DNA of 64,000 nucleotides from an uncultured bacterium (GTDB lineage Bacteria; Patescibacteriota; Minisyncoccia; Phycocordibacterales; UBA9973). The position numbers and the translations under genes are program-made. The stretch's first letter is position 1, and every line of letters begins with the position of its first letter. Under the pieces are notes generated by a model. The model saw only the letters and a list, made by a program, of their open reading frames with translations. It was not told the DNA's origin and ran no database searches. This document shows, piece after piece, positions 1 to 62,823 of the stretch. The stretch spans positions 7,185 to 71,184 of the forward strand of contig CAIQAL010000001.1 in the NCBI GenBank assembly GCA_903869825.1, written 5' to 3'.

Positions 1-588
1 TTTGGTTGTTTTAGCTTACGTAGTAAAGAATATTGCATTTTAAATAAACAATACGGAAAAGCGGAATATGAAAAACTTGTACCAGAAATTATTGAAAATA
101 TGAGAGCGAGCGGGGACTGGGGTAATTTCTTTCCGGTTTGGATGAGTCCTTTCGGCTATAACGAGTCTATCTCAAATGAGTACATGCCGCTTGAGAAAAG
201 TGAAGCTTTGTCGCAAGGATTTACCTGGCGGGATAATATTCCATGTACGAAAGGGCAAGAAAATTGCAATTATAGAGACTTGCCAAAAGATTCCGTGGAA
301 TATTCCGATAAAGATTTACTAGATAAAATTTTGAAGTGTGAGTCTTGCGATAAAAATTATCGCTTTATTTCTCGTGAAATTTCCTTTTATAAACGAATGG
401 GTCTAGCTCTTCCCGCTAAGTGCTTTAATTGTCGGCACCAAGTGAGAATGAACAATAGAAATCCAAGAATTCTAAATGAGGTGACTTGTGTCGCTTGCGG
501 AGACAAAACCATGACTACTTATCCGAAAGAGAAGCACAAAATTTATAAAATATATTGCGAGGATTGTTATAAAAAAGAAATAAACTAA
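1..588 (+). CDS. Cys-rich double zinc-ribbon paralog family protein, copy A (5'-truncated by window edge; C-terminal ~195 aa present)
   Basis: Frame is open from base 1 (FGCFSLRSKEYCILNKQYGKAEYEKL...) to the TAA at 586-588. The ORF-track entry 100..588 is only the internal-Met portion. The C-terminal architecture (YKRMGLALPAKCFNCRH ... YCEDCYKKEIN) aligns with the C-termini of copies B-F. Confidence 0.6.
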   Translation, partial: FGCFSLRSKEYCILNKQYGKAEYEKLVPEIIENMRASGDWGNFFPVWMSPFGYNESISNEYMPLEKSEALSQGFTWRDNIPCTKGQENCNYRDLPKDSVEYSDKDLLDKILKCESCDKNYRFISREISFYKRMGLALPAKCFNCRHQVRMNNRNPRILNEVTCVACGDKTMTTYPKEKHKIYKIYCEDCYKKEIN

Positions 589-589
589 T

Positions 590-1936
590 ATGCAAAATTA
601 TAAAGAACAATTTAAGGGAAAGAAAATAACAGTCATGGGGCTTGGGTTACTTGGGCGAGGCGTTGGAGATACTGCCTACTTAGCCGAATGCGGAGCGAAT
701 TTGATTGTGACTGATTTGAAATCAAAAGAACAACTTGCTAGTTCTTTAAAAATTCTTTCAAAATATAAAAACATTAGTTACAGGCTCGGTGAGCATAATC
801 TGGAAGATTTCAAAAATAGAGATATGATTTTGAAGGCAGCGGGAGTACCACTTGATTCTATTTACGTTAATGAAGCCCATAAAAATAATATTCCAGTTGA
901 GATGAGTGCTTCGCTGTTTGCCAAGGTAGCTGGAATAAAAGTTGTTGGAATTACTGGGACCCGGGGAAAATCCACTGTGACTCATTTGATCAACCAAATT
1001 TTTAAACTTGCCGGAAAAAAGGTTTTACTGGGGGGTAATGTCCGTGGAGTTTCCACATTGCAACTTTTGAAAAAAGTGACCCCGAATTCAATTGCTCTCT
1101 TTGAGCTTGATTCTTGGCAGTTGCAAGGGTTTGGGGATTCGAAAATTAGCCCCAATATATCAATTTTTACTACTTTTTTAGATGATCATTTAAATTACTA
1201 CAAAGGGAATCGTGACTTGTATTTCGATGATAAAGCAAATATTTTTAAGTATCAAAAAGAGGAAGATATTTTTGTCGCAGGAGAAGGGTTGGTAAAAAGA
1301 TTGCATGCAAAAGTTCGCGCTCGCGCTTTAGTTGCTCGAGAGAAAGATTTGCCAAAAGCTTGGAAATTAAAAATTCCAGGAGAGCATAACCGTCTGAACG
1401 CTCAATGCGCAGTGCTGGCGGCTCGGAGAATGGGGATAAGTGAAAAAACTATCCGAAAAGTAGTGGAAAACTACGAAGGGGTAGAAGGACGTTTGCAATA
1501 TATTCGGGAAATAAAAGGGATAAAGATTTATAATGATAATAATTCTACGACACCAGATGCGACGGTTGCCGCTCTTCGAGCAGTGGGCGATAAGAAGAAA
1601 AGAAAAGTGGTTTTGATTGTTGGGGGCGATGATAAAAAGCTCGATACAAAAAAACTCTTACACGAGATGCCGAAATGGTGTTCCAAAATTGTGATGTTTA
1701 AAGAGCGGGGGACAGAAACTATCCGAGATGCAGTATTTAAATTTAAAAAGAAAGGCATCGAAGTGTATGAAGAAGAAGGATTGCCAAATACAGTAAAAAG
1801 AGCGTATTCTCTAGCCAAACCCGGTGAAACTATTCTATATAGTCCCGGCTTTTCTTCTTTTGGTAAATATTTTAATAATGAGTATGAGCGTAGTGATCAG
1901 TTTATGAAATTAATAAAAAATTTATTGTATGCATAA
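590..1936 (+). CDS. murD: UDP-N-acetylmuramoylalanine--D-glutamate ligase
   Basis: 448 aa. N-terminal Rossmann-like VMGLGLLGRGVG, Mur-ligase P-loop GITGTRGKST, C-terminal NDNNSTTPDATVAAL. Mur ligase family, best fit MurD; murC is a separate gene downstream. Confidence 0.8.
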   Translation: MQNYKEQFKGKKITVMGLGLLGRGVGDTAYLAECGANLIVTDLKSKEQLASSLKILSKYKNISYRLGEHNLEDFKNRDMILKAAGVPLDSIYVNEAHKNNIPVEMSASLFAKVAGIKVVGITGTRGKSTVTHLINQIFKLAGKKVLLGGNVRGVSTLQLLKKVTPNSIALFELDSWQLQGFGDSKISPNISIFTTFLDDHLNYYKGNRDLYFDDKANIFKYQKEEDIFVAGEGLVKRLHAKVRARALVAREKDLPKAWKLKIPGEHNRLNAQCAVLAARRMGISEKTIRKVVENYEGVEGRLQYIREIKGIKIYNDNNSTTPDATVAALRAVGDKKKRKVVLIVGGDDKKLDTKKLLHEMPKWCSKIVMFKERGTETIRDAVFKFKKKGIEVYEEEGLPNTVKRAYSLAKPGETILYSPGFSSFGKYFNNEYERSDQFMKLIKNLLYA

Positions 1937-2441: not shown

Positions 2442-2444
2442 ATT

Positions 2445-2867: not shown

Positions 2868-2868
2868 T

Positions 2869-3441: not shown

Positions 3442-3445
3442 AATT

Positions 3446-5090: not shown

Positions 5091-5096
5091 TCTATT

Positions 5097-5663: not shown

Positions 5664-5680
5664 TTTGATATACTAAATTT

Positions 5681-19441: not shown

Positions 19442-19442
19442 G

Positions 19443-19524
19443 TGCTGGAGGAGGGACTCGAACCCTCAAGCCTTGCGGCACTAGTTCCTAAGACTAGCGC
19501 GTATACCAATTCCGCCACTCCAGC
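19443..19524 (-). tRNA. tRNA-Leu (anticodon TAG), type II, long variable arm
   Basis: Reverse complement GCTGGAG-TG-GCGGAATTGGTATACGC-...-CTAGT-CTTAGGA-ACTAG-long arm-GGGTTCGAGTCCC-CTCCAGC-A. Acceptor 7 bp; anticodon loop CTTAGGA; CCA not encoded. Confidence 0.8.
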
Positions 19525-19562
19525 AAACATAATTTTATATAAATGTTTTAATTAAACATTTG

Positions 19563-19635
19563 TCCGCCCTGAAGGGATCGAACCTTCGACCTTATCCTTA
19601 AGAGGGATCTGCTCTACCAGCTGAGCTAAGGGCGG
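19563..19635 (-). tRNA. tRNA-Lys (anticodon CTT)
   Basis: Reverse complement CCGCCCT-TA-GCTCAGCTGGTAGAGC-A-GATCC-CTCTTAA-GGATA-AGGTC-GAAGGTTCGATCCCTTC-AGGGCGG-A. Anticodon loop CTCTTAA. Confidence 0.7.
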
Positions 19636-19681
19636 ATAATTAACTTTAACATGAAAATGAAAACAAATCTTATTAAGTTGT

Positions 19682-19763
19682 GTGCCCGGAGTGGGAGTCG
19701 AACCCACATCCCTTGCGAGACACGATTTTAAGTCGTGCGCGTATACCAATTCCGCCATCCGGG
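19682..19763 (-). tRNA. tRNA-Leu (anticodon TAA), type II
   Basis: Reverse complement GCCCGGA-TG-GCGGAATTGGTATACGC-...CACGA-CTTAAAA-TCGTG-long arm-GGGTTCGACTCCC-TCCGGGC-A. Confidence 0.8.
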
Positions 19764-19781
19764 CATTCTTGATTTGGACGG

Positions 19782-19853
19782 GAGGCCTGGGCCGGAATTG
19801 AACCGGCGTATATTCCTTTTGCAGAGGAATGCCTTACCACTTGGCTACCAGGC
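19782..19853 (-). tRNA. tRNA-Cys (anticodon GCA)
   Basis: Reverse complement GGCCTGG-TA-GCCAAGTGGTAAGGC-A-TTCCT-CTGCAAA-AGGAA-...-GCCGGTTCAATTCCGGC-CCAGGCC-T. Confidence 0.75.
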
Positions 19854-19911
19854 CTGAAAAATTTCAAATTTATCTTACTTAACTCCCAAGCTTCAAAAAA
19901 CCTTTTTAATC

Positions 19912-27460: not shown

Positions 27461-27507
27461 CGAAAAATTAAAGACCTTCTTGTAAAAACAAGGAGACCTT
27501 TTCGGTG

Positions 27508-30330: not shown

Positions 30331-32116
30331 ATGGAAATTCTAAACGAGATTTGTCAAAATTGTAAAGAAGATTTTTTGATTGATTATGAAGACTTAAGTT
30401 TTTACGAAAAAATGAAAGTCCCTCCGCCGACGTTTTGTTGGCTTTGTCGGGCACAAAGACGAATGGCATGGCGCAACGAGAGTAGTCTCTTTAAAAGAAA
30501 AAGTGATTATTCCGGAAAAGAGATTTTTTCTGCGTTTTCTCCGGAATCACCAGTAAAAGTATATGAAAAAGATGTTTGGCTTTCCGATGTTTGGGAACCA
30601 ATAGATTACGGCAGAGAATATGATTTTTCAAAGTCTTTTTTTGAACAATTCAAGGAGTTACTTCGCACTGTACCACTAAAAAATTTAAACGTTATTCGTG
30701 GAGTGAACAGTGATTATTGCAACAACATAACAAATCCAAAAAATTCTTATTTATGTTTCAACGGAAAGGATGCGGAAGATTGTATGTATTCAAATGGACT
30801 GGCATACTTAAAAGACTGTGTAGATAGTTCTAACTGCGCCAAAAGCGAACGATGCTATGAATCTTTTTGGTTGAATTCTTGTACAGACACAGTTTTTTCT
30901 TCTCAGTGTCAAAATTCTTTTAAGTTATCTTTTTGTCGAGACTGCGCCAATTGTAATGATTGTTTTGGCTGCGTAGGGCTGAGAGGGAAAAGTTATTGTG
31001 TTTTTAATGAACCTTATAACAAAGAAAATTATTTTAAAAAAATTAATGAATACGATGTTTCCTCATATGTTGGCTTGCAGAATCTTTTAAAATTAAGGGC
31101 AGAGTTTTGGAAAAAATTTCCTAGAAAATTTATCGAGGGGTATCAAAATACAAATGTAGCAGGGAATTATATTGATAATTCCAGAAATGTGCGAAATTCA
31201 TATTTGATACGGGAGGGAGAAAATTTACGGTATTGCCAATATGTTCAAGAATTACCTGGAAGTAAGGATTGTTATGACTACACTGCCTGGGGGGACTCCA
31301 ACGAACTAGTGTATGAGTGCTCAGCTTGTGGTAACGGTACAAATTCAATTAAGTTTTGCTACAATGTTCAAGAAAACTCCTATAACGTAGAATATTCCTA
31401 TATGTGCACGGGTTCTTCATATTTATTTATTTGGTTGTGTTGGTTTAAAGAAAAAACAGTATTGTATTTTTAATAAACAGTATCCAAAAGAAGAATATGA
31501 AGTAATTGTTGAAAAAATTAAAAAACAAATGAACGAAATACCTTACTTGGATAAGAAAGGAAGAATATATAAATACGGAGAATTTTTTCCTATTGAACTT
31601 TCACCTTTTGCCTATAATGAAACATTAGCTCAAGAGTTTTTTGTTAAATCAGTTAAAGAAGCCAAAGAAGATGGATATTCTTGGACAAATGATGCTGACA
31701 AAAATTATGTTCCTACTAAAAGAACAAACGATTTACCGAACAGAATAGAAGAGGTTTCTGATGAAATTGTTAATGAGATTGTTGAATGTGAACATCAAGG
31801 CAAGTGTAATGACCGCTGTGCGACAGCTTTCAGAATTACTGAAAAAGAGCTCCAGTTTTATAGAAGGATGAAAATTCCTCTACCAAGACTTTGTCCCAAT
31901 TGCCGTCATTTTAAACGTTTGGAACAACGAACATTGTTGCAGACAGTGCATAAGAATTGTCAGTGTGCCGGCAATAATTCAGATGGTGGAATTTACAACA
32001 ACACAGTTGAACATCCTCATGGTGACAAACCTTGCTCTAATGAATTTGAAACAAATTATACTAGTGACACCGATATTATCTATTGTGAGAATTGCTACAA
32101 GAAAGAAGTGTATTAG
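30331..32116 (+). CDS. Cys-rich double zinc-ribbon paralog family protein, copy B (reading frame interrupted at an (ATTT)3 tract ~31418-31433)
   Basis: ORFs 30331..31473 and 31529..32116 are one gene. The downstream frame ...IYLFGCVGLKKKQYCIFNKQYPKEEYEVIVEKIKKQMNEIPYLDKKG... continues the paralog alignment; removing one ATTT unit restores a ~595-aa protein. Confidence 0.6.
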
Positions 32117-46220: not shown

Positions 46221-47932
46221 ATGGAAAATAGGATATGCCAAAACTGTCAGAAAGATTTCACAATCGAATCGGAGGATTTTTCATTTTACGAAAAAATTAA
46301 AGTCCCTTTACCAACCTTTTGCCCGGATTGTCGAACTCAAAGACGTTTTACCTGGAGAAATGAAAGAAATTTATATCGCAATAAGTGTGCAGCCACCGGA
46401 GCAAATGTAATCTCAGGTTTTTCCGTCGATTCTGGTATGACAATCTATGAAAGAGAATACTGGTGGAGCGACAAATGGGATCCAATGTCTTTTGGAGTGG
46501 ACTATGATTTTTCAAAACCTTTTTTCCTACAGTTTCAAAGTTTTATGAAAAGCACTCCGATGCCTTCCTCATTCAATGCCCGTACAATAAATAGCGAGTA
46601 TTTCAGCATACCGGAGATTTTAAGAATGCTTATCTGGTACACGCTTCCTGGGGTGGGGAGAATGTTTCTTATGCCGCACGAGTAAGCGAAGTAAAAGATT
46701 CTATGGATTCATTGGTTCTTTCTAACTCGGAACTTTGTTACGAAGTGATTGCCAGTAACAAATGCTACAACGTGACCCATTCCCAAAATCTTGAAGGTTG
46801 CAATAATTCTTCATTTTTATTTGAGTGTCGTGGATGTTCTGATTGTTTTGGTTGCGTTAACTTGCGCAACCAGAGTTACCATATTTTTAACGAACCATAC
46901 AGTCGGGAAAAATATTTAGAAAAAGTAAATGAATTTAACATTGGGAGTTATAAAAATTTTAAAGAAATCGAAAAGAACTTCAAGGATCTTAAGCAGAAAG
47001 CGATTCAAAAATACGCAAACATTGTAAATTCTCCCAACTGTACCGGAGATAATATCGTAAATTCATATAACTCTAAAAATTGTTTTGATCTTTATGGAGA
47101 GGTCAGGGATTGTAAGTTTATCCAAAATTGCGCCAAGTTCTTGAAAGACAGTTATGACGGATATGGAGTCGGCTCTTCGGCTGATCTTACCTATGAAGTT
47201 TTTGATACCGGGGTGCAAGGTTCTAGACTTTGTTTCGGGGCGGTTGTCTATGGTGGTCATGATGTCTATTATTCTTACAATTGTCACGGGAGTCAAAATT
47301 GTTTTGCTTGTGTAGGACTTCGCTCAAAATCTTACTGCATTTTTAATAAACAATACACCAAAGATGAGTATGAATCACTTGTTCCAAAGATAATAAAACA
47401 TATGAATGAAATGTCGTATGTTGATGCAAAGGGGAGAACATACAAATATGGAGAATTTTTCCCAAGTGACTTGAGTCCTTTTGCCTACAATGAAACTATC
47501 GCCCAAGAATATTTTTCATTAACCAAAGAAGAAGTTTTGAAACAAGGTTATAAATGGAGAGAAAAAGATGGAAGAAGCTACCAGATGGATATTAAAAATG
47601 AAAATATTCCAGATGATATTAAGGAAGTAGGTGAATCAATAATCGGGAAGGTTATAGAGTGTGAACACAAGGGTACCTGTAACGAACAATGTACTGAGGC
47701 CTTCAAACTTATCCCAGATAAATTACAATTTTACAAAAGGATGAATTTACCTTTACCTCGCATCTGCCCCAATTGTCGTCACTATGAAAGACTAGGAAAA
47801 AGAAATCCAATGAAGCTTTGGCTCAGAAAATGCATGAAGGAAGGTTGTCAAAACGAATTTGAAACGAGCTATGCTCCCTACCGATCGGAAACCGTTTATT
47901 GTGAAAGATGTTACCAACAAGAAGTCTACTAG
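46221..47932 (+). CDS. Cys-rich double zinc-ribbon paralog family protein, copy C (frame interrupted at a T-run ~46606-46612)
   Basis: ORFs 46221..46685 and 46703..47932 are one gene. In the -1 frame, NSEYF is followed by QHTGDFKNAYLVHASWGGENVSYAARVSEVKDSMDSLVLSNSELCYEV, which aligns to copy D. One extra T in the tatttc run restores the frame. Confidence 0.6.
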
Positions 47933-52163: not shown

Positions 52164-52775
52164 ATGAAAGATGAAGAAAAAGAAAAAAAAGAGGAAAATA
52201 AGGATGAAATGACGCCGAAGGAAGATGCTTCTGAGGTTTTAGAGTTTGAATTTAATGATGACGGAGAAGAAGATCTTAAAAAAACCATAAAAAAGCTTCG
52301 AGCAGAATTAAAGAAAATTAAAGCCGAAAAAGACGAATATTTAACCGGCTGGCAGAAAGAACGAGCGGATTTTGTGAACTACAAGAAACAAGACGAAGAC
52401 AGAAAGTTGAATTTCTCCGAATCAATCCGGGAAAGAATTCTAACCAGGTTTTTGAGTGTGGCGGACAGCTTCAATATGGCCTTTGCAAATAAAGAAGCTT
52501 GGGAAAAAGTTGATGAAAATTGGCGCAAAGGGGTGGAATATATCTATGGTCAGATGAATACTATATTTGAAGAATATGGAGTAAAATCAATCGGGGAAGC
52601 GGGAGAAAGTTTTGATCACAACATCCATCATTCGATAGAAATGATTCCGACTGATAAAAAAGAAGACGATCATAAAATTGCTGAGGTTATTCAAAGAGGA
52701 TACAAACTTGGTGACCGCGTAATTCGAGCTGCCCGAGTGAATGTTTTTGAGTACCATGACAAGCCCACAGAATAA
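52164..52775 (+). CDS. grpE: nucleotide exchange factor GrpE
   Basis: Acidic N-terminus, coiled coil (LRAELKKIKAEKDEYLTGWQKERADFVNYKK), C-terminal IQRGYKLGDRVIRAARVNV. Confidence 0.85.
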   Translation: MKDEEKEKKEENKDEMTPKEDASEVLEFEFNDDGEEDLKKTIKKLRAELKKIKAEKDEYLTGWQKERADFVNYKKQDEDRKLNFSESIRERILTRFLSVADSFNMAFANKEAWEKVDENWRKGVEYIYGQMNTIFEEYGVKSIGEAGESFDHNIHHSIEMIPTDKKEDDHKIAEVIQRGYKLGDRVIRAARVNVFEYHDKPTE

Positions 52776-54480
52776 AACCTGTCAGAATTGCAAGTGTGAC
52801 TTCATAATCGAATCTGAAGATTTTAATTTTTACGAGAAGATAAAGGTTCCACCACCGACTTGGTGTCCGGAATGTCGAATGATAAGACGTATGTCCTTTC
52901 GTGATTACAGGGTACTTTATAAAAGGAAAAGTGATAAAACGGGGAAAATAATTTTTTCTATTTTTCCACAAGAATCTCCTTTTAAAGTTTGGGAACGTGA
53001 TATTTGGTGGTCGGATGAATTGAATGCTCTTGATTACGGGAAAAACGTAGATTTTAATAAAAATTTCTTTATTCAACTAAAAGAACTTTTTTTTGATGTT
53101 CCTTCATCGGGGCAAACTTGTTGGAATATGGTCAATAGTGAGTATTGCACTGGTGCTAATAGTTTAAAAAATTGTTACCTGGTATTTGTATCCACGTTTT
53201 CAGAAGATTCCATGTATTGTGCAGAAATAAATAGAACAAAGAATTCTATTGACGTTACAAGAATCGAGTCGTCGGAATTGTGCTATCAATCTTTTGCTCT
53301 CATAAAGTGTTATCAAGCTTTCTTTTCTTCTCATTGTGAAAACTGCATGGATATCTGGTTTTCCAGAAACTTAGTTGGTTGTAATTATTGTTTTGGTTGT
53401 ACAAATTTAAGAAACAAGCAATACTGCGTTTTTAATAAACAATACACAAAAGAAAATTATATCAAATATGTAGATGATCTTGACCTAAGCTCTTACAAAT
53501 CAATGAAAGCGGTAAAAGAAAAGGCAGAAAAAGTAGTGGAAAAAAGTATCAGAAAATTCATGGAAGGACGATACAATTCTAATGTTTCCGGTGAGTACAT
53601 CAATAACTCAAAAAATACTTTTAATAGCTATTACGTTATTCAAGGAGAAGACAGTAAGTATGTTCAATCTTTTTTCACTCCTGGTTTTAAAGACTGCTAT
53701 GATTGTACGATGTGGGGACAAAATTCCGAATTATGCTATGAATGTTCTTCTGTCGGAGAAAATTGTTATAACAATAAATTTAATTATCGTTGCAGTAGAG
53801 GTTCGCATGATTGTGAGTATTCCTATAGTTGCTATGGAAGTTCAAATATTTTTGGTTGTTCTGGACTTATTAATAAACAATATTGCATTTTAAATAAACA
53901 GTACACAAAGGAAGAATATTCCAGACTAAGAGAAAAAGTAATCAAACACATGAATGATGTCCCATACTTAGACAAAAAGGGGACAATGTATACGTACGGA
54001 GAATTCTTCCCCTTAGAATTGTCTCCTTTTTCTTACAATGAATCAATGGCCCAGGATTATTTTCCCCTAGAAAAAAAACAAGCCGTTAACCTAGGTTTTA
54101 GGTGGAAGGATAAAGAAGAAAGGAATTACAAGATAGATATCAAAAATGAAAATATTCCTGATAGTAATAAAGACATTACGGAAGATATCTTAAACAAGGC
54201 GATTGAATGTGAAAACAAAAACAAAAACGTCGAATATTGTACTGAAGCGTTTAAAATTATTAAATCAGAGTTGCAGTTTTATAAAAAATTTAATTTACCA
54301 TTACCAAGATTATGCCCAAACTGTAGGCATTTTGATCGTTTAAAAATGAGGAATTCTTTGAAACTTTGGAACCGCAAATGTATGAAAGAAGGTTGTCAGA
54401 ATGAATTTGAAACCAGCTACGCTCCCGAATGTCCTGAAATCGTTTACTGTGAACGTTGTTATCAACAAGAAGTATACTAA
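52756..54480 (+). CDS. Cys-rich double zinc-ribbon paralog family protein, copy D
   Basis: Intact, ~575 aa. Start at ATG 52756 (MTSPQNKTCQNCKCDF...) overlaps the grpE stop by 20 nt in another frame; the ORF track's alternative start is 52741. Full architecture described in the findings. Confidence 0.65.
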   Translation: MTSPQNKTCQNCKCDFIIESEDFNFYEKIKVPPPTWCPECRMIRRMSFRDYRVLYKRKSDKTGKIIFSIFPQESPFKVWERDIWWSDELNALDYGKNVDFNKNFFIQLKELFFDVPSSGQTCWNMVNSEYCTGANSLKNCYLVFVSTFSEDSMYCAEINRTKNSIDVTRIESSELCYQSFALIKCYQAFFSSHCENCMDIWFSRNLVGCNYCFGCTNLRNKQYCVFNKQYTKENYIKYVDDLDLSSYKSMKAVKEKAEKVVEKSIRKFMEGRYNSNVSGEYINNSKNTFNSYYVIQGEDSKYVQSFFTPGFKDCYDCTMWGQNSELCYECSSVGENCYNNKFNYRCSRGSHDCEYSYSCYGSSNIFGCSGLINKQYCILNKQYTKEEYSRLREKVIKHMNDVPYLDKKGTMYTYGEFFPLELSPFSYNESMAQDYFPLEKKQAVNLGFRWKDKEERNYKIDIKNENIPDSNKDITEDILNKAIECENKNKNVEYCTEAFKIIKSELQFYKKFNLPLPRLCPNCRHFDRLKMRNSLKLWNRKCMKEGCQNEFETSYAPECPEIVYCERCYQQEVY

Positions 54481-54481
54481 T

Positions 54482-56137
54482 ATGAAACCAGAAACAAGAA
54501 CATGCGAACATTGTGGTAAGGAATTCTCTATTTCAGAAGAAGAATTAAATATGTATAAGAAGATAGATATTGAATTACCGACTATTTGCTTTTTTTGCCG
54601 AGTAAAAATTCACTTGTCTTTTTGGATGTTCGGAAAATTTCGAAAAGGAAAATCTGATCTTTCTGGGGAAAGCTTAATAACAGTTTTGCCTAATAAAAAT
54701 CGTTATCCAATCTATACTCTAACGGAATGGTGGAGCGATAAATGGGATGCAATGGATTTTGGACAAGATTACGATCAACAAAGAACTTTTTTTTCTCAGC
54801 TAAAGGAATTGCAAGAAAAAGTCCCGCATCCACATCAAAACGGTAGTAAAAATACAGGATGTGATTGGTGTGACGATGTTTGGAATTCTAAAAATTGTTA
54901 TTTAGCTCGCTCGATGGTTGATTGTGAAGATTTATATTATTCTTACAGAAACTTAAATGTTAAAAATTCTATAGATGTGACTGTTTGCTATAACTCTGAA
55001 AAGCTATTTGATTCGTTAAATTGCCTTCATTCTTTTAAAATTTTTTATTCAAGAAACTCAAGAGACTGTGTAGAATCGTATTTTTTATTTGATTGTCGTA
55101 ATTGTCAAAATTGTTTCATGTGCTGGAACTTGAGAGGTAAATCATTTTGTATAGAAAATATCCAATATACTAGGGATGATTATTTTGAAAAATTAAAATC
55201 ATTTAACTTAGGGTCATATAAGTCAATTCAAAATTTCAAAATAAGATTTGAGGAAATAGCACGTACCGAAGTTGTGCATAGAGAAAATTTTAACCTTAAA
55301 ATTCATAATTCTGACGGAGATCAATTAATTAACTGTAAGAATTGTCATAACTCGTTTACTATAAGCGATTCAGAAGATAGTTATAATTGCATAAGAGGAA
55401 AGAATGAAAAGTCTAACATTGACGCCAATGGCACATGGGATTCTGAATTAATAGGTAATTGTAGTTCTTGTTTTGGTGGTTATATGCAAAAATATTGTGC
55501 TTGGTCAACTTCTCGATTTTCAGAATACTTGGATTTATGTTTAGAATGCGAAAATTGTTTTGGTTGTGTCGGACTTAAAAAGAAAAAATATTGTATTTTA
55601 AATAAGCAATATGAAAAAGAAGAATATGAAAAACTTATGTTGGAAATTATTACTAATATGAAAAAAAGGGGAGAGTATGGAAAGTTTTTACCTTTTCTAA
55701 TGTCTGCAGGGCCATTTAATTTCTCTACAAGCTTTCTGTATTTTCCAGAAACGAAAAAAGAAGATATTTTAAAGCTTGGAGGTTATTGGGAGGATGTTGA
55801 TGAAAGTCATATCGAAGGAATGCTGACTAGTGAATTACCTGATAGCATAAAAGATGTTCCTGATAATATTATTACCGAAGCCTTAATTTGTCCACAAACT
55901 GGTTGGCGTTTCAATATTGCACAGAACGAACTAAATTTTTACCGGCAAAATAATATTCCGCTGCCTAGACGACATTTTGATGTTAGAATTAAAGACAATA
56001 TAAAATATTCGACAGTGTTGCAATCTTATCATTACAAATGTTTTTATTGTAAAATAGATATCGATGGCTATTATCCGCCGGAGTGGGAATATAAAAAAAT
56101 TGCTTGTGAAGAGTGTTACAAGCAAAATATTAACTAA
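54482..56137 (+). CDS. Cys-rich double zinc-ribbon paralog family protein, copy E
   Basis: Starts 1 nt after copy D's stop (MKPETRTCEHCGKEFSISEEELNMYKKIDIELPTICFFCR...). The ORF-track start 54401 lies inside D and is rejected. ~551 aa. Confidence 0.65.
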   Translation: MKPETRTCEHCGKEFSISEEELNMYKKIDIELPTICFFCRVKIHLSFWMFGKFRKGKSDLSGESLITVLPNKNRYPIYTLTEWWSDKWDAMDFGQDYDQQRTFFSQLKELQEKVPHPHQNGSKNTGCDWCDDVWNSKNCYLARSMVDCEDLYYSYRNLNVKNSIDVTVCYNSEKLFDSLNCLHSFKIFYSRNSRDCVESYFLFDCRNCQNCFMCWNLRGKSFCIENIQYTRDDYFEKLKSFNLGSYKSIQNFKIRFEEIARTEVVHRENFNLKIHNSDGDQLINCKNCHNSFTISDSEDSYNCIRGKNEKSNIDANGTWDSELIGNCSSCFGGYMQKYCAWSTSRFSEYLDLCLECENCFGCVGLKKKKYCILNKQYEKEEYEKLMLEIITNMKKRGEYGKFLPFLMSAGPFNFSTSFLYFPETKKEDILKLGGYWEDVDESHIEGMLTSELPDSIKDVPDNIITEALICPQTGWRFNIAQNELNFYRQNNIPLPRRHFDVRIKDNIKYSTVLQSYHYKCFYCKIDIDGYYPPEWEYKKIACEECYKQNIN

Positions 56138-56138
56138 T

Positions 56139-56672
56139 TTATTTTTTGAGAGCTTTAAGAAATTCCAGATTTGTTTCCGGATCAAGTTTTTCAGTAACAA
56201 TAATCATCAATTCCGAACAAAGGCCCAAATCTTTTTTAATATTCGTGAAAAGATATTCGTATGGATGAGGGGAGATCCAGACGGTATTTTTTATGCAAAC
56301 GAAATTCGCTTTCTTGAGTAAGTAGCGTAATGCTTCACGTTCGCTTTTTCTTTCTTCAGGAATATCTAAAATTATAATTCGCCAAAGTCCGTCCCAGGTA
56401 TTTGACACGAGTGCTTCTTCGCCTTCGAGACGAATGGAGTTTAATTTTCTTTGGCCTTTTTTGGTAATTTTCAGGTATTTTTGGTTGTCGGAACTGTGGA
56501 TTTCCACGCAACCTGATTCGATTAATTGCTTGATAGAGCGGGCGAGGGCATAGTTTTTCTTTTGGTCTTTCCCTTTTATTGCTTCAACAGAAATGGCAGG
56601 TTTTTCAGACAAAACTTTCAAAATAGCCTTTTGAATATTGGGTTTTTTGATGTTTTTTACTACTTTATCCAT
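56139..56672 (-). CDS. PaaX-family-like transcriptional regulator (N-terminal winged helix + PaaX_C-like domain), short form
   Basis: WDGLWRIIILDIPEERKSEREALRYLLKKANFVCIKNTVWISPHPYE matches the PaaX C-terminal signature (WDG.W...D.PE..R..R..L...GF..L.NSVW.SP). N-terminal wHTH IQKAILKVLSEKPAISVEAI. Its stop is 1 nt from copy E's stop on the other strand. Confidence 0.5.
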   Translation of the reverse strand: MDKVVKNIKKPNIQKAILKVLSEKPAISVEAIKGKDQKKNYALARSIKQLIESGCVEIHSSDNQKYLKITKKGQRKLNSIRLEGEEALVSNTWDGLWRIIILDIPEERKSEREALRYLLKKANFVCIKNTVWISPHPYEYLFTNIKKDLGLCSELMIIVTEKLDPETNLEFLKALKK

Positions 56673-56709
56673 AACACTTGCATTATACCAAAATCTGATT
56701 ATAATATCA

Positions 56710-56739
56710 ACAAGTATTTTGCGACCACGAAATACTTGT
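56710..56739. promoter_or_regulatory. perfect 10-bp inverted repeat ACAAGTATTT-N10-AAATACTTGT (operator candidate) in the regulator/dnaK divergent region
   Basis: Arms at 56710-56719 and 56730-56739. The right arm overlaps the putative dnaK -35 box. Confidence 0.45.
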
Positions 56740-56764
56740 CAAAATTATTAGATGGGTATATACT
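56736..56764 (+). promoter_or_regulatory. sigma70 promoter candidate for dnaK (TTGTCA-17-TATACT)
   Basis: TTGTCA at 56736-56741 and TATACT at 56759-56764; leader ~55 nt to the dnaK ATG. Confidence 0.4.
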
Positions 56765-56825: not shown

Positions 56826-58736
56826 ATGTCAAAAATTATTGGGATAGACTTAGGTACAACAAATTCAGCGGTAGCTATAATTGAAGGAGGCGTACCAAAA
56901 ATTATTGAAAACGTCGAAGGAAATCGCACGACTCCTTCGGTGGTAGCAACTGCTAAAAATGGCGATCGTATCGTGGGGTTACTTGCAAAAAGACAAGCAG
57001 TGACAAATCCAGAAAATACCATCGCGGAAATCAAGCGCTATATGGGGCACCGCTTTGATGATCCGGGAGTGCAAAAAGATAAAATTTCTGCTCCATTTAA
57101 AATTGAAGCTGAAGAAAACGGCGGAGTGAAAGTAAAAATGTCCGACAAATTTTATCGGCCGGAAGAAATTTCTGCCATGGTATTGCAGAAAATAAAAGCA
57201 GACGTCGAAGCAAAATTGGGAGAAAAAATTACCGAAGCGGTCATTACCGTGCCGGCATATTTTAATGATGCTCAAAGAAAGGCAACGAAAGATGCTGGTC
57301 TTATTGCTGGGCTTGATGTAAAGAGAATTATCAACGAACCGACGGCCGCAGCGCTTGCTTACGGATTCAATAAAAAGAAAAATGAAAAGATTGTGGTATA
57401 CGATTTCGGAGGTGGAACCTTTGATGTGTCTGTACTTGAGATCGGAGATGATGTAATAGAAGTAAAATCGACCGATGGAGACTCTCACATGGGCGGAGGT
57501 GATATTGATCGAAAAATAATTACTTGGATTGCGGAAGAATACAAAAAGGAATCTGGAGTGGACGTTAGAAAAGATCCACTTGCTCACCAACGTTTAAAGG
57601 AAGCGGCTGAAAAAGCAAAACACGAACTCTCTACCACAATGGAAACAGAAATCAATATTCCTTTTATCACTTCCGATGCATCAGGACCGAAACACTTACT
57701 CATGAAAATGTCTCGAGCCACCTTGGAATCTTTGGCCAAAGAATACATTGACCGCTCGATAGAGATAACCAAGCGTGCTTTAGAAGCTTCGCCGTTTAAA
57801 ATGGCGGAGATAGATGAGATTATTATGGTTGGCGGTCAAACTCGAATGCCAGCTATTGTAGAGGCGGTAAAAAACCTTTTCGGGAAAGCTCCAAATATGT
57901 CTATCAACCCGGATGAAGTCGTAGCTCTTGGAGCTGCAGTGCAGGCAGGAGTGTTGGCAGGAGACGTGCGAGATGTTTTACTGCTCGACGTCATTCCACT
58001 TTCCTTGGGAATTGAAACCTTGGGAGGCGTGGGAACAAAATTGATTGAAAGAAATACTACTATTCCGGCTTCAAAATCACAAGTGTTTTCAACTGCTGCC
58101 GACAATCAAACAAGCGTTGAGATTCATATTGTCCAAGGAGAACGTCCGATGGCCGCTGACAACAAATCACTCGGCCGGTTTATTTTGGATGGTGTTCCAC
58201 CATCTCCTCGAGGAATGCCTCAAATCGAAGTCACTTTTGATATTGATGCAAACGGAATCTTAAATGTGAAAGCGCAAGATAAAGCATCCGGGAAAGTGCA
58301 ATCAATCAAGATTGAAGCAAGTTCTGGATTAAAAGATGAGGATATTAAAAAAATGCAAGCGGATGCTGAAATTCACGCAGAAGAAGATAAAAAGAAAAGG
58401 GAATTAGTGGATGTGAAAAATACCGCTGAGATGATTATTTACACTGCGGAAAAAGCAGTGAAAGAGAATGATGCAAAAATTCCGGAAGATATCAAGAAAA
58501 CAGTAAATGAGAAAATCTCAGCTCTTCGTTCAGTAAAAGACAGTACGGATATGGAGGCTGTCAAAAAAGCGACCGAAGAACTTTCAGCTGAGATGTCTAA
58601 AATCGGCGAAGCTATGGCAAAAGCTGGAGCGACCGATACCAAAGACACAACCCCAGAAGAACAAAATCCAGAAGTGTACGATGCCGAATTCAAGGAAGAT
58701 AAAGACAAGCCTGGAAGCGAAGCTCCTAAACAATAA
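56826..58736 (+). CDS. dnaK: molecular chaperone DnaK (Hsp70)
   Basis: [34 protein letters not shown]; 636 aa. Confidence 0.95.
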
Positions 58737-58749
58737 AATTTGTTTTCAA

Positions 58750-58778
58750 AAAGACCCAACATGGGGCTTTTTGTTTTT
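58750..58778 (+). terminator. terminator candidate after dnaK (imperfect stem + T-rich run)
   Basis: AAGACCCAACATGGGGCTTTTTGTTTTT. Confidence 0.35.
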
Positions 58779-58787
58779 CACCTTTGT

Positions 58788-58796
58788 GATATAATT
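58788..58796 (+). promoter_or_regulatory. extended -10 (TGaTATAAT) 7 nt upstream of the ATPase-1 ATG; candidate leaderless transcript
   Basis: TGTGATATAAT at 58786-58796; ATG at 58803. Confidence 0.35.
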
Positions 58797-58802
58797 TATC
58801 TA

Positions 58803-61037
58803 ATGGAAATGCCGAAAATACCTATGAATAAGGATATGACCTATATTGGTTTGACCACTTATCGTGATAAAAACCAGCTTTTTGGGATTAAACGAAAAGA
58901 CCGTCGTCAGCATGTATATTTACTAGGGAAGTCTGGTACCGGTAAATCCGTCCTGATGTTCAATATGATTATCCAGAACATCAAGAATGGCGATGGAGTT
59001 TGTGTAGTTGACCCGCACGGAGAACTCGTGGAAGGAGTTCTTTCTGCTATTCCACCACACCGAATGAAAGATGTTGTTTACTTTAATCCAGCCGATCCGG
59101 ACTATCACATTGGTTTTAATGTGCTTGAACTTATTGACCCGAAATACAAACACCTTATCGCTTCGGGCCTCATGGGAATTTTTACCAAAATTTGGGCGAA
59201 TGCTTGGAGTGCTCGAATGGAATACATTTTGAACAATGCTATTTTGGCTTTGCTTGATACTCCGGGGACGACGATGCTTGGAATCCCGAGAATGCTGGTG
59301 GACAAAGATTATCGCCAGAAAATAATTTCAAATTTAAAAGACCCGGTCATTAAAGCTTTTTGGATTCATGAATATGAAGAATGGCAAGACAAATTTCGAA
59401 ACGAAGCGATTGCTCCTATTCAAAATAAAGTCGGGCAATTTCTTTCGACCCCGATTATCAGAAATGTCGTTGGCCAAGCGGAAAGCACAATAAATATTTT
59501 TGACATAATGAACGAAGGAAAGATTTTCTTAGTGAACGTTTCAAAAGGACGTATCGGAGAAGATAACTCATCGCTTTTGGGAGGAATGATTATTACCAAA
59601 ATTCAGTTGGCTGCAATGGAACGGGTTCGAATTCCGGAAGAGGAACGAAGAGATTTTTATTTGTATGTTGACGAATTTCAAAATTTTGTTACCGATTCTT
59701 TTGCCGGGATATTGTCGGAAGCTAGAAAATACCGCTTAAACTTAACGGTGGCGCACCAGTACACTGCCCAGCTTGTTTCGGACAAAAGTTCCAGTGTTAG
59801 AGATGCTGTTTTCGGAAACGTTGGAACAATGATTGTTTTTCGAGTAGGTTCGGATGACGCAGACTTTTTGGAAAAGGAATTTGATCCAGAATTTACTCCC
59901 CAAGATATTGTAAACTTACCAAACTACAAAATTTATCTTAAATTAATGATTGATGGAGTCACTTCTAGACCATTCTCAGCTAAAACTTTGCCACCAATGG
60001 CGCACGGAGATCCGAAAGTGGAAGAAGAAGTAATAAAAAGTTCTCGTGAACTTTATTGTAAGACAAGAGAAATAGTAGAACGGGAAATAAATAATTGGAG
60101 TGGAATGTCGCTCGGCAATGAGAATGATACTGGAGGGGTTGAAAAGTTTCCTGCGGTTTGTTCAATTTGCAAAAAAGAAACTTTTGTCCCATTTAAACCT
60201 GAACCAGGCAGACCTGTTTACTGTAAGGATTGTATTGCAAAATTAAAATCAGGTGAATTAAAACCAGTCAAGGGTTCGATTAACCAGATCAAATATGATG
60301 AAGGTAAATTCTATAAACCACTGTCGGATCTAGGAATTGAATTTGAACAAAAAACTCCATCAGTGGCGCAAGCAAAAACAATGGAAGGAGATAGATATCC
60401 TGAGAGAACAGACAGAATAGGGCATGTGGATAATAATCAGACAAATGCTCGACCCGGAATTTTCTCCGCAATTAAAAAAGTATTTAATAAAAATGCTATG
60501 CCTGTCGGATTACAACCAAAGGGTAATTTAAATACGCAGCCGGTTAGAAATAATTTTATGAAAAATAAGCCAAAGGCAGTTCATTCAGCTAATGGCAATA
60601 TTGCCTTGAAGGAAATATTGAATAAAACCTTAAATGAAGCTTTGGCCGAAAAAAAACAAGTTCCAGAAATCAAGCCTGAACAGATTGTTAAAGAAAACCC
60701 AAATATTCCAAAACCAATTTCCTTAAATGAACTTAAAACTCAAACACCTGAAGTAACTTTTGTCCCGAAAGATAAATCAGCCAAACCGGAAGATATGAAT
60801 AGATTGAAGAATTTTATAATAGGAAAAAATTTAGAACATAAAGAAGAAGTTGTTCAGACTTCACCTTCCGTCGAACCTATTCCAGTATCAACTTCAACAT
60901 CAATGCCGATACCGGAACCAATTCCTGAACCAATTCCATCTCCGATTCCTCTTGCATTATCACCTGAACAAACACCGGAACCAAAAACTTCAACTAAGGA
61001 AGTGCCTGAAGATGTTCTCAGAAAAATGCTAGAGTAA
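58803..61037 (+). CDS. TraG/TraD/VirD4-type (type IV coupling-protein-like, AAA_10/TraG-D_C) ATPase with C-terminal CxxC...CxxC zinc ribbon and Pro-rich low-complexity tail (ATPase-1)
   Basis: Walker A LLGKSGTGKS, VVDPHGEL, Walker B FYLYVDEFQNF, and RKYRLNLTVAHQY...NVGTMIVFRVG (TraG-D_C-like). No N-terminal TM. C-terminal ribbon CSICKKETFVPFKPEPGRPVYCKDC. Start at 58803, because the upstream part of ORF 58740 contains the dnaK terminator. Confidence 0.6.
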   Translation: MEMPKIPMNKDMTYIGLTTYRDKNQLFGIKRKDRRQHVYLLGKSGTGKSVLMFNMIIQNIKNGDGVCVVDPHGELVEGVLSAIPPHRMKDVVYFNPADPDYHIGFNVLELIDPKYKHLIASGLMGIFTKIWANAWSARMEYILNNAILALLDTPGTTMLGIPRMLVDKDYRQKIISNLKDPVIKAFWIHEYEEWQDKFRNEAIAPIQNKVGQFLSTPIIRNVVGQAESTINIFDIMNEGKIFLVNVSKGRIGEDNSSLLGGMIITKIQLAAMERVRIPEEERRDFYLYVDEFQNFVTDSFAGILSEARKYRLNLTVAHQYTAQLVSDKSSSVRDAVFGNVGTMIVFRVGSDDADFLEKEFDPEFTPQDIVNLPNYKIYLKLMIDGVTSRPFSAKTLPPMAHGDPKVEEEVIKSSRELYCKTREIVEREINNWSGMSLGNENDTGGVEKFPAVCSICKKETFVPFKPEPGRPVYCKDCIAKLKSGELKPVKGSINQIKYDEGKFYKPLSDLGIEFEQKTPSVAQAKTMEGDRYPERTDRIGHVDNNQTNARPGIFSAIKKVFNKNAMPVGLQPKGNLNTQPVRNNFMKNKPKAVHSANGNIALKEILNKTLNEALAEKKQVPEIKPEQIVKENPNIPKPISLNELKTQTPEVTFVPKDKSAKPEDMNRLKNFIIGKNLEHKEEVVQTSPSVEPIPVSTSTSMPIPEPIPEPIPSPIPLALSPEQTPEPKTSTKEVPEDVLRKMLE
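60895..60960 (+). repeat. low-complexity PIPEPIPEPIPSPIP coding repeat in the ATPase-1 tail
   Basis: ccgataccggaaccaattcctgaaccaattccatctccgattcct. Confidence 0.5.
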
Positions 61038-61056
61038 CACTTCACAAAGCCGTGGT

Positions 61057-62823
61057 GTGTTCAAAAATTTTATGAATTCGGAAACTAAAACCCCCAATTT
61101 TGATAAATTGTTAGATGAAATTTTAGAAAAAATTGTGCCTCACGAAAGAGAATGTGCACAGAAAGATATCTCAAAATATTGTGAAAAAAAATTCAGAATT
61201 TATGATGAAGATATAAAATTTTATAAATTACTTCGGGTGCCACCCCCAAAGTGTTGTCCGACTTGCCGGCGGCAGAGACGGAATGCCTTTACCAACAGAA
61301 TATATTTATATAAAAGAAAAGATGATGCTCCCGGGAATTCAAAGGAAGTAATATCTTTTGTTCCTCCTGTCTCGCCATTTGTTGTTTATAATTTGGATTA
61401 TTATAGAAGTTCCAAATGGGACCCAATTTCTTTTGCTGTTGACTATGATTTCTCAGTGCCATTTTTTGATCAATTTTTTGATTTACGATTGAAAGTGCCC
61501 CAGTATGCTATTGTACGGGACCCTTCAAGTATTAATAGCGAGTATTCTTTAAATGGGCGTAACTTAAAAAATGGTTATTTAGTGAGTGGTGGAACCGACT
61601 CAGAAAATCTCTGGTATAGTATTTTTATAAAAAATTCAAGGGAAGTTATGGACAGTCATAGTATAGACAAGTGCGAACAGTGCTCTGAAATGATTTTGAC
61701 CAAAAATATGAATCTATGCTTCTATTGTTATTTTTCTTTCAACTGTATCAGTTCTTATTTTTTACTTGATTGTCGTAATTGCCAAAATTGTTTTGGCTGT
61801 TCAAATTTGCGCAATAAAAAATATTGCTTTTTTAATAAACAACTTGGGAAAGTTGAGTACGAAGAAAAAATAAAATCTATGAGATTAGATTCTAGGTCTG
61901 GACTTAAAGATGCAAGAAAAAAATTTTGGGAATTCGTAAAGCAAAATCCAGTAAGAGCTTCTCGTTCCAGCCGGTCAGTAAATTCCAGTGGGTTGGCCAT
62001 TATCAATTCAAGGAATTGTCAGAATGTTATATCTTGTGAAAACGGAGAAAATGAAAGGTATGTCAATATGGTCACTAACCACAAAGACTCGATGGATGTG
62101 TACACTTCAGGTGATTCAGAACTTTTGTATGAAGTATCTTGGGTAGGAGCGGGCGCTTCAAATATTAAATTCTCATTTGGTTCAAAAAATGTTACTAATT
62201 GCGAATTTGTTATTAATTGTCATTATTGTGACAATTGTTTTGCTTGTATCGGACTTGAAAATAAAAAATATCATATTTTAAATCGCCCTTATGGTAGAGA
62301 CGAATATTTCAAAGAATTGGATAAAATTAAGTTATCTCTTTTAAAGAGCGGAGAGTATGGTGAGTTCCTACAGTGTCGATTTAGTACTTTTGCGTACAAT
62401 GGCTCTGAAGCAGATTTATATTTTCCACTTGATCAATACGAGACAAAAAAAATTGGGGCATACTATCAACCTGATAGTGGAATAGAAACACAAGGGATAA
62501 AAATTGCAGAAGCAAAAGATATCCCAGACAAAATAATTGATGTGGAAGATAATATTTTAGACGAAGCAATTACTTGCGAAAAAACCGGTCGCCTTTTTAA
62601 AATTATTAAAAGCGAACTTGATTTCTATAGAAGATATAAGCTACCCATTCCTACCTTTCACCCTTTGGAGCGAATGAAAAGCACTTATTGGTATTTGGTT
62701 GGAGATAATATCGTTTATAAAGATTTTTGTGATAAATGTGGAATTCCGATAGAAACAATCTATAATCCAAAAAATAATTGGAGACTTTATTGTGAAAGTT
62801 GTTATCAAAAAGAGGTATATTAA
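61057..62823 (+). CDS. Cys-rich double zinc-ribbon paralog family protein, copy F
   Basis: 588 aa, intact. CEKKFRIYDEDIKFYKLLRVPPPKCCPTCRRQRR ... CRNCQNCFGCSNLRNKKYCFFNKQ ... CEKTGRLFKIIKSELDFYRRYKLPIPTF ... YCESCYQKEVY. Confidence 0.65.
   Translation: MFKNFMNSETKTPNFDKLLDEILEKIVPHERECAQKDISKYCEKKFRIYDEDIKFYKLLRVPPPKCCPTCRRQRRNAFTNRIYLYKRKDDAPGNSKEVISFVPPVSPFVVYNLDYYRSSKWDPISFAVDYDFSVPFFDQFFDLRLKVPQYAIVRDPSSINSEYSLNGRNLKNGYLVSGGTDSENLWYSIFIKNSREVMDSHSIDKCEQCSEMILTKNMNLCFYCYFSFNCISSYFLLDCRNCQNCFGCSNLRNKKYCFFNKQLGKVEYEEKIKSMRLDSRSGLKDARKKFWEFVKQNPVRASRSSRSVNSSGLAIINSRNCQNVISCENGENERYVNMVTNHKDSMDVYTSGDSELLYEVSWVGAGASNIKFSFGSKNVTNCEFVINCHYCDNCFACIGLENKKYHILNRPYGRDEYFKELDKIKLSLLKSGEYGEFLQCRFSTFAYNGSEADLYFPLDQYETKKIGAYYQPDSGIETQGIKIAEAKDIPDKIIDVEDNILDEAITCEKTGRLFKIIKSELDFYRRYKLPIPTFHPLERMKSTYWYLVGDNIVYKDFCDKCGIPIETIYNPKNNWRLYCESCYQKEVY

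Follow-up and report, generated by a model that had tools for sequence, protein, structure and literature searches.

A large, unnamed family of proteins with terminal fingers and predicted capped beta-solenoids in Patescibacteria, recurrently encoded next to VirD4-like ATPases

A 64,000-nucleotide stretch of DNA from an uncultured bacterium of the Patescibacteriota (contig CAIQAL010000001.1; hereafter the window, meaning the whole stretch that was analysed) contains six homologous genes on the plus strand, A to F, which belong to a very large and unnamed protein family outside every described kind, whose sequences are already present in the databases as 'hypothetical proteins'. The copies are ancient, specialised paralogs under purifying selection, and multi-copy arrays on a single strand, which sit inside housekeeping operons, are the norm for the family across Paceibacteria. 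Only the small terminal modules of these proteins fit described domain families, loosely as judged from their sequence, and those domain families are themselves uncharacterised. The reading favoured here, which is tentative and held with clearly less than even confidence, is that the proteins may be zinc-stabilised binding scaffolds acting as adaptors or cargo for orphan ATPases that resemble type IV coupling proteins (T4CPs). What is reported is an undescribed family with a hypothesis attached to it, and not a demonstrated mechanism.

Results

The six genes were delimited from a list of open reading frames (ORFs) and by direct translation, both of which agree with the positions and strand given in an earlier note on this DNA, and a sweep with tblastn and hidden Markov models (HMMs) detected no further copies on either strand of the window. 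Altogether they occupy about 9.2 kb, that is, 14% of the window. Their pairwise amino acid identity is 31-48%, and likeness at the nucleotide level is patchy and confined to short motif-coding stretches, the longest common exact words being of 10-22 nt. Because of these values the copies are not assembly duplicates, and the all-against-all comparison bears out the earlier view of diverged paralogs as opposed to nucleotide-identical artefacts; a recent duplication is ruled out on the same grounds. The sole repeat linking the copies at the DNA level is an 81-nt motif, present twice per gene with 68-79% identity to a reference copy (53380-53460, 53839-53919, 55547-55627, 61780-61860 and 62227-62307), which encodes the solenoid cap C-x2-CFGC..LRxKxYCxxNKQYxKEEY.

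A word-indexed search with copy D returned more than 7,196 matches, all the named ones annotated as 'hypothetical protein', and a profile search at E<=1e-3 recovered 5,320 clusters (50% identity), 2,296 of them reaching E<=1e-30, with uniform lengths of about 545-600 aa. In a scan of one genome per species at least 589 stretches were confirmed, and 80 loci with a mean length of 15.6 kb were kept from them as the locus set. The titles of these loci refer to Staskawicz-, Nomura-, Sungii-, Lipton-, Giovannoni- and Jorgensenbacteria, Minisyncoccia, Paceibacterota, 'Patescibacteria group' or generic names. Among the matches listed, the lone title not of Patescibacteria type is a 'Burkholderiales' metagenome-assembled genome (locus L055, JAMPXW010000002.1), which shows the dnaK/T4CP/family synteny of Paceibacteria. 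Two matches titled 'Aenigmarchaeota' would place the family in DPANN archaea as well, which is doubtful. Next to its family gene, the 'Aenigmatarchaeota' contig L081 (JAWACN010000004.1) carries an AMMECR1 gene with a single named near relative, a Parcubacteria protein of 70% identity, and the contig has probably been misbinned. The public labels of both L081 and L055 look wrong. The family is essentially confined to Patescibacteria of the Paceibacteria/Parcubacteria type.

No significant full-length match was found in Pfam, NCBIfam, PADLOC or PHROGs, nor in the PDB by sequence, and by fold the PDB offered just generic beta-solenoids, in line with the earlier statement that no named family could be assigned. 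Searches by tblastn of 50,697 phage records yielded no family match, IMG/VR contained a single contig-edge fragment of the family, and a fold search of BFVD gave small zinc ribbons only (E>=0.04). A phage origin is ruled out by the empty phage search and the near-empty IMG/VR, and a known defence system was also discarded, there being no PADLOC match. No published description of the family was found in the searchable literature.

Family proteins are soluble and about 575 aa long, with about 150 residues in ribbons and fingers and about 350 in a double solenoid. They start with a zf_Tbcl-type ribbon and a CxxC-x17-CxxC-type finger, followed by a short aromatic linker domain and two homologous, narrow beta-solenoids, both of which end in a Cys-rich cap (C-x2-C-x2-C-x2-C...C) with a helix; the protein is completed by a small alpha/beta domain (YGEFFP..SPFxYNE) and a second ribbon plus finger. 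All six motif blocks described in the earlier note are present. In copy D, the N-terminal ribbon (52780..52893, plus strand, as for all its modules; residues 9-46) carries C9, C12, C37 and C40 with the motif FYEKIKVPPPTxCPxCRxxRR, and the N-terminal finger follows at 52912..53013 (residues 53-86). Beta-solenoid 1 (53107..53463; residues 118-236), made of 12-residue coils with Cys, Ser, Asn or Asp at every third position, ends in the cap C-x2-C-x2-C-x2-C..LRNKxYCxFNxxYxKEEY, whereas beta-solenoid 2 and its cap FGCxGLxxKxYCILNKQYTKEEY extend over 53551..53925 (residues 266-390). The C-terminal ribbon maps to 54208..54348 (residues 485-531; C485, C495, C520 and C523) and the C-terminal finger to 54370..54477 (residues 539-574; C542, C547, C565 and C568), the latter being conserved in the paralogs through the last residue (..YCExCYxxEVY). 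AlphaFold2 models of D (mean predicted local distance difference test, pLDDT, 80.8; predicted template modelling score, pTM, 0.84) and F (pLDDT 84.1; pTM 0.87) display the same topology.

Internal duplications were tested by hhalign profile-profile comparison of segments from 181 full-length members. The two ribbons are homologous to each other (hhalign 99.2%, E 3e-19), as are residues ~50-92 and the C-terminal finger (97.7%, E 2e-12) and solenoids 1 (~115-236) and 2 (~262-390; 99.9%, E 3e-37). Cys residues are placed with a strict period of three (autocorrelation 0.65 at lag 3), and Cys, Ser, Asn and Asp taken together repeat at lag 12 (autocorrelation 0.50), which is also the spacing of the strands in the D and F models. 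In the N-terminal coils, the every-third positions mix these four residues; in the last coil of solenoid 1, four such positions are occupied by Cys in 78, 91, 96 and 88% of cases, and LRNKxYCxFNxxYxKEEY and the helix come after it. Across the family, both ends of the protein, its caps and the YGEFFP..SPFxYNE block are conserved, the most variable parts being the solenoid bodies.

The likeness to zf-trcl proposed earlier holds at the level of the isolated ribbon and mostly remains under threshold. PF13451 (zf_Tbcl), with a gathering score of 24 bits and a definition that includes two Cys pairs about 24-26 residues apart, matches the isolated N-terminal ribbon of D with 18.6 bits (E 0.0018; profile positions 6-44 of 48), no match being reported on full-length D, and 18 of the 54 family members have matches at E<=0.01 (best 9.9e-6). 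PF23477 (zf_Tbcl_2) matches four of the 54 (best 1.8e-6), and precomputed matches to it exist for some database members. Against the cut-offs of 27 bits for PF23477 and 36 bits for TIGR04272, the C-terminal finger of F reaches 18.9 and 18.2 bits (E ~1e-3) and that of D 11.3 bits, and the zf_Tbcl and CxxC-x17-CxxC scores of every window copy lie under the curated cut-offs.

The 40-45 Cys per protein of the earlier note were not recovered, the full-length window copies having 28-36 and family members a median of 34 (range 22-42). Its two zinc ribbons in each copy hold for B to D but not for E and F, where the second ribbon keeps one Cys out of four; the Cys pairs are kept in the N-terminal ribbons of B-E and in the C-terminal ribbons of A-D, and the first ribbon of F uses C-x8-C. 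The Cys of the N-terminal finger are gone from all window copies and retained in ~40-60% of family members. In the C-terminal finger, the spacing C-x2-C-x17-C-x2-C is exact in A, E and F, while C and D show C-x4-C-x17-C-x2-C and B bears an insertion. Conserved Arg/Lys residues stand after both ribbons, and the isoelectric point (pI) of family members has a median of 6.3 (range 5.2-8.6). As previously stated, there is no signal peptide or transmembrane segment in the window copies (maximum Kyte-Doolittle 19-residue hydropathy <=1.23), and none occurs in 181 relatives (<=1.51).

Small CxxC-x17-CxxC proteins of Methanosarcina mazei bind zinc, as determined by inductively coupled plasma mass spectrometry (PMC12704099), and by homology to them zinc is favoured over Fe-S clusters for the fingers, and for the fingers only; the caps, by motif, probably bind zinc as well. 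The caps do not follow the ferredoxin-type [4Fe-4S] pattern (C-x2-C-x2-C-x3-C-P), since they read C-x2-C-x2-C-x2-C-x8-C without CP and have no match to the Fer4 HMM. Neither the 18-residue coils, built of [LIV]-[GAED]-x2-[STAV]-x hexapeptides, nor the Pfam Hexapep match of hexapeptide left-handed beta-helices (those of acyltransferases and gamma-carbonic anhydrases) was found. Metallothionein-like proteins, which are small, with about 30% Cys and little conserved fold, are also a poor description of proteins with ~575 aa, ~6% Cys, a pTM of 0.84-0.87 and many conserved non-Cys residues.

The 80 loci contain 221 family ORFs, 219 of them on the strand of the query copy. Two or more full-length copies were found in 47 loci and three or more in 28, up to a maximum of 8 full-length copies and 11 family ORFs, and in related genomes as many as 11 family ORFs lie within 22 kb. 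Against the other copies of its locus, a copy has a median best identity of 44%, and the median for adjacent tandem pairs is 41%; for the best match in a different genome the value is 59%, and just 4 of 150 copies adjoin their closest relative. Arrays are mostly formed by different subfamilies (e.g. 8 copies in 7 clusters). The earlier idea of a lineage-specific expansion of this genome must consequently be abandoned: the paralogs are ancient, and mostly closer to copies of other genomes than to those of their own locus. In 13 ortholog pairs of 80-87% identity, the ratio of nonsynonymous to synonymous substitutions (dN/dS) is 0.04-0.14 (median 0.075; solenoid bodies 0.056), values that are approximate because dS is near saturation and that are still well below 1. 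The solenoid parts differ most between paralogs yet are kept between orthologs, which indicates specialised paralogs and neither an arms race nor decay; diversifying selection on the orthologs is excluded by omega values of ~0.04-0.14 in all regions. Copy number in one syntenic slot differs between genomes, and related genomes may hold different paralogs in the same slot.

With respect to the individual copies, the earlier description of ORFs that align end to end applies to D, E and F, all intact, but not to B and C, each of them split by one indel and aligning end to end with D once this is repaired. Copy A (1..588, plus strand, as for all six) consists of the final 195 codons, its 5′ part being cut off by the window start, and keeps cap 2, the C-terminal ribbon with four Cys and the C-terminal finger. 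Copy B (30331..32116) has one frameshift, with ORFs at 30331-31473 and, in another frame, 31529-32116; the frame changes inside an (ATTT)3 tetranucleotide tract at 31420-31432, and the halves are otherwise intact and conserved. Copy C (46221..47932) is split into ORFs 46221-46685 and 46703-47932 by a 1-nt deletion near 46602-46610, outside any repeat, with an open and conserved downstream half. Both are frame changes and not in-frame stops, so that an alternative genetic code is unneeded as their cause; possible explanations are errors of sequencing, pseudogenes of recent origin and variants within the population. Two split copies out of five full-length ones is an unusually high number, since interior split copies elsewhere amount to ~5% (19 interior partial ORFs). 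Copy D (52756..54480) encodes 574 aa, or 579 aa in the public gene call, which starts at 52741; copy E (54482..56137) encodes 551 aa; and copy F (61057..62823) starts either at GTG 61057 or, in the public call, at ATG 61072 (583 aa).

The tight packing of the copies against their neighbours, as described earlier, was confirmed. The stop of A lies 1 nt before murD (590-1936), C starts 7 nt past its upstream gene and is followed by infA, the ATG of D at 52756 overlaps the 3′ end of grpE (52164..52775, plus strand), directly upstream of the D-E pair, and E begins 1 nt past D. Copy B is placed between a P-type cation ATPase (27668-30304, plus strand) and a gene (32161-33459, plus strand) for a ferric-reductase-like membrane flavoprotein with FRD, FAD and NAD domains. 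Gaps to the genes of the host operons are of -20 to +26 nt on the same strand and nothing resembling a terminator separates grpE, D and E, so it is plausible, from the sequence, that family copies are co-transcribed with their host operons. No flanking direct or inverted repeats were found around the window copies, and the earlier exclusion of an insertion sequence stands: with no repeats, no transposase, integrase or nuclease domain, no near-identical copies and a mutual identity of 31-48%, an insertion sequence, transposon or homing element is rejected.

The TraG/VirD4-like ATPases noted earlier beside F proved to be on both sides of it. Downstream of E, a PaaX/MarR-like regulator (56139-56672, minus strand) precedes dnaK (56826..58736, plus strand), which is directly upstream of the gene for a long T4CP-like P-loop ATPase of the VirD4/TraD/TrwB type (58740..61037, plus strand; 765 aa, or 744 aa in the public call starting at 58803). 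This gene ends 19 nt before F, and that for a short T4CP-like ATPase (62888..64000, plus strand) starts 65 nt past F and runs off the window end. The NCBIfam matches of these T4CP-like ATPases include TraD/CedD, and no hydrophobic or transmembrane segment was found in either. In the long one, a C-terminal extension of ~300 aa contains a CxxC-x17-CxxC finger at ORF residues 468-501 followed by a low-complexity, Pro/Glu/Lys-rich tail of ~260 aa. This finger is over both cut-offs, with 45.4 bits on PF23477 and 47.6 on TIGR04272, and hhalign shows it to be homologous to both fingers of the family (94.9% and 96.7%). The charged tail of the short ATPase ends in ..SQEAEPMI in two other genomes inspected.

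T4CP-like genes occur in 36 of 81 loci; of the 54 genes involved, 24 are closer than 100 bp to a family gene, and almost all share its strand. The order grpE, family copies, paaX-like gene in the reverse orientation, dnaK, long ATPase, family copies, short ATPase, dnaJ and further family copies, each set in variable number, recurs in at least 10 genomes. The core formed by long ATPase, family copies and short ATPase, whose usual place is within grpE-dnaK-dnaJ, also appears after a different gene pair (c11-c8), without dnaK and dnaJ. Starting from the short ATPase in metagenomes, a family gene ends less than 1 kb upstream in 48 of the 62 loci with enough upstream DNA. The identity of the short ATPase is 70-96% across cassette genomes and 89-96% in dnaK-linked loci, which makes it as conserved as DnaK (80-90% in these loci) or more; the long ATPase shows 53-76% where an ortholog is present, and the family gene between both ATPases in other genomes has 33-43% identity to F. 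Orthologs of F, at 82-50% identity, are found elsewhere in other operons, either between scpAB and methionine aminopeptidase or between argS and ileS.

Several other features were recorded around these loci. A CutA-like gene is repeatedly found with the short T4CP-like gene on one side and more family copies on the other (in L001-L080, e.g. L011, L042, L064, L059 and L028); other neighbours that recur, probably through synteny alone, are genes for cysteinyl-tRNA synthetase, an AI-2E-type permease and agmatinase. The divergent intergenic region between the regulator and dnaK contains a 19-nt inverted repeat (56701-56748; 84% complementary, 10-nt spacer), which overlaps the best promoter-like matches and may therefore be an operator of the chaperone locus. 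Elsewhere in the window, a protein whose N-terminus resembles sigma-70 region 4, and another part of which weakly resembles RNA polymerase delta (35942-36970, plus strand), is followed by a 436-aa protein without family match (37054-38364, plus strand); in other Paceibacteria, though not in this window, this pair stands directly before family copies and a T4CP-like gene. Finally, the minus strand carries four tRNA genes at 19442-19855 (Leu-TAG, Lys-CTT, Leu-TAA and Cys-GCA) and a separate tRNA-Tyr at 27507-27590.

Discussion

Under the proposal that the family serves ATPases as adaptors or cargo, fingers and caps would bind zinc and hold a rigid scaffold, whose paralog-specific solenoid faces would bind different ligands. 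Each paralog may have a ligand of its own, because the solenoid faces vary between paralogs and are kept between orthologs. Through their conserved finger ends, all paralogs would dock onto one shared partner, most likely the two orphan, soluble VirD4/TraD-like ATPases, the long one of which bears a finger of the same type, and the family as a whole would be a repertoire of adaptors, or of cargo, for an exapted coupling-protein motor. As could be expected from a client or adaptor of a T4CP, F is encoded together with such genes, being flanked by two of them in a cassette that is present in two genomic contexts. The link to TraG-like ATPases suggested in the earlier note gains from this neighbourhood, recurrent in many genomes, and from the shared finger type, and it keeps the rank of a suggestion. 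In a 2025 survey, 5,713 VirD4-like genes were counted in 2,918 Patescibacteria genomes, 148 of them near virB4, and its authors suggest that these genes may have been exapted (PMC12102498).

A number of observations weigh against this proposal. Many copies lie far from any T4CP-like gene, including A, B and C, half of those in the window, and the F-type orthologs in operons of scpAB/methionine aminopeptidase or argS/ileS are a case in point. The neighbourhood signal derives in large part from synteny that related genomes have inherited, and the loci were sampled by similarity either to D or to the short ATPase. Moreover, genomes have about two T4CP-like genes versus at least 6-11 family copies. 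A genuine T4CP would be membrane-anchored and encoded alongside VirB4 and channel genes, whereas neither ATPase has a hydrophobic segment and no virB4-like gene is among the F-proximal neighbours examined; with ATPases devoid of transmembrane segments and no virB4 in the window, a role in secretion is not indicated. Since small domains of the shared finger type are common in these genomes, this likeness could be coincidental.

The terminal modules would also be in keeping with nucleic-acid-binding proteins, in which ribbon plus finger modules with basic residues (CRxxRR) would grip DNA or RNA, the solenoid of each paralog would set the specificity for its own conserved target (for instance a tRNA, or a site in rRNA or DNA), and the neighbouring ATPases of the FtsK/HerA/TraD type would be DNA translocases on the same substrate. 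Treble-clef and ribbon fingers of such kind are typical of nucleic-acid binders (PMC4999995), and a possible transcription role of CxxC-x17-CxxC proteins has been discussed (PMC12704099). The conserved Arg/Lys behind both ribbons, the NCBIfam TraD/CedD matches, which relate the ATPases to DNA pumps, and the many ancient paralogs, each under purifying selection, which fit many distinct conserved targets, point in the same direction. The near-neutral pI, the absence of any match to a known DNA- or RNA-binding family in Pfam and NCBIfam, the lost Cys of one ribbon in E and F, and a weak PDB likeness to LIM fingers, which are protein-binding modules, speak against it however, and nucleic-acid binding is considered rather unlikely. 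A different use of the same ATPases would be the delivery of the proteins, as an effector repertoire with a conserved C-terminal signal, to the T4SS (type IV secretion system) of Patescibacteria and from there into the host. T4SS signals are C-terminal, and effectors of host-dependent bacteria typically form large paralog repertoires. In accordance with export, the family C-terminus is kept to the final residue in all paralogs, the genes adjoin T4CP-like genes and T4SSs are widespread in Patescibacteria (PMC12102498). Nevertheless, a dN/dS of ~0.07 and ancient orthology are unlike fast-evolving effectors, several tightly folded zinc modules make poor translocation substrates, and the T4CP-like proteins have no membrane anchor and are rarely near virB4 (PMC12102498); in the sole genetic study, as far as it is cited in that survey, the T4CP homologue was dispensable for epibiotic growth. 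An exported cargo is hence decidedly unlikely.

The location of D, E and F inside grpE-dnaK-dnaJ, kept in at least 10 genomes, suggests another possibility, i.e. that these Cys- and Zn-rich proteins are co-expressed with the heat-shock operon and would serve to buffer zinc or thiols, or would be redox-switched holdases like Hsp33 or the zinc centre of DnaJ. With ~34 Cys per protein, a copy (B) adjoining a P-type cation ATPase and a ferric-reductase-like gene, and CutA as a recurrent neighbour, a function in stress, metal or redox homeostasis has some appeal, but Cys are just ~6% of the residues, most of those in the solenoids interchange freely with Ser, Asn or Asp, the strong non-Cys conservation and the paralog-specific surfaces would be unnecessary for buffering, and many copies reside outside the chaperone locus, all of which makes it very unlikely. 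Lastly, the variation in copy number and in paralog identity within a syntenic slot, the insertion between conserved genes with tiny gaps, and the frameshifts in two of five full-length copies here (~5% elsewhere) are what a selfish or decaying family would leave behind, for instance free-standing homing-type genes set between housekeeping genes and lost by frameshifts. Such a family is scarcely credible in this case and is largely refuted by the absence of repeats and of near-identical copies and by purifying selection over the full length; besides, no nuclease, transposase or integrase domain was found in Pfam, NCBIfam, PADLOC or PHROGs, phage and viral collections are essentially devoid of the family, and orthologs are kept across a class-level clade.

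Patescibacteria (CPR bacteria) are very small symbionts with genomes of roughly 0.6-1 Mb. For so small a genome, the assignment of 14% of a 64-kb stretch to one family is striking, as is the absence from every curated library of a family with thousands of members, and the conservation of each paralog implies that cells need the whole set. The pairing of this family with two orphan VirD4-like ATPases offers a testable lead on the question, posed in 2025, of what coupling-protein homologues do without a nearby secretion system (PMC12102498). The predicted fold, where zinc fingers cap a solenoid of 12-residue coils with Cys at every third position, would be of structural interest in itself. A bolder and distinctly improbable extension of the scaffold proposal is that metal ions are held inside the lumen of the solenoid, giving a metal-filled beta-solenoid without counterpart among solved structures, and that the family is the missing partner set of the two ATPases, in a new, symbiont-specific cytoplasmic machine. 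Metal in the lumen is conceivable because Cys recur every third residue, with C-x2-C-x2-C-x2-C per 12-residue turn at the solenoid ends; if true, the ATPase partner set would explain why Patescibacteria keep two orphan VirD4-like ATPases, one of them at least as conserved as DnaK.

Regarding known systems, the Cys spacing and helix motif of PF13451 ('probable treble clef domain', formerly zf-trcl) and of PF23477/TIGR04272 are the same as in the four terminal modules of the family. These are, however, uncharacterised small domains, whereas the modules described here flank a double solenoid of ~350 residues without family match, and several of them have lost Cys. The likeness of that core to known proteins does not go beyond that of a generic short-coil solenoid. 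The double zinc fingers of the LIM proteins CRP and PINCH match the C-terminal ribbon plus finger weakly (E 0.03-0.3, not significant); LIM domains are protein-protein interaction modules, and their ligand patterns differ from those of the family, with which they have nothing else in common. As for the proposed adaptors, the system to compare is the coupling-protein complex of Legionella, in which DotL is accompanied by the zinc-binding DotN, IcmS/IcmW and LvgA. By docking on the C-terminal extension of the VirD4-type ATPase, these accessory proteins, one of them a zinc protein, allow it to serve more kinds of client. DotL is anchored in the membrane and belongs to a complete secretion system, whereas the ATPases found here are soluble and the VirD4-like genes of Patescibacteria are generally orphan (PMC12102498). 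In any case, the likeness would be one of working principle only, with a long ATPase whose extension of ~300 aa, bearing the finger type of the family, might offer a comparable docking site.

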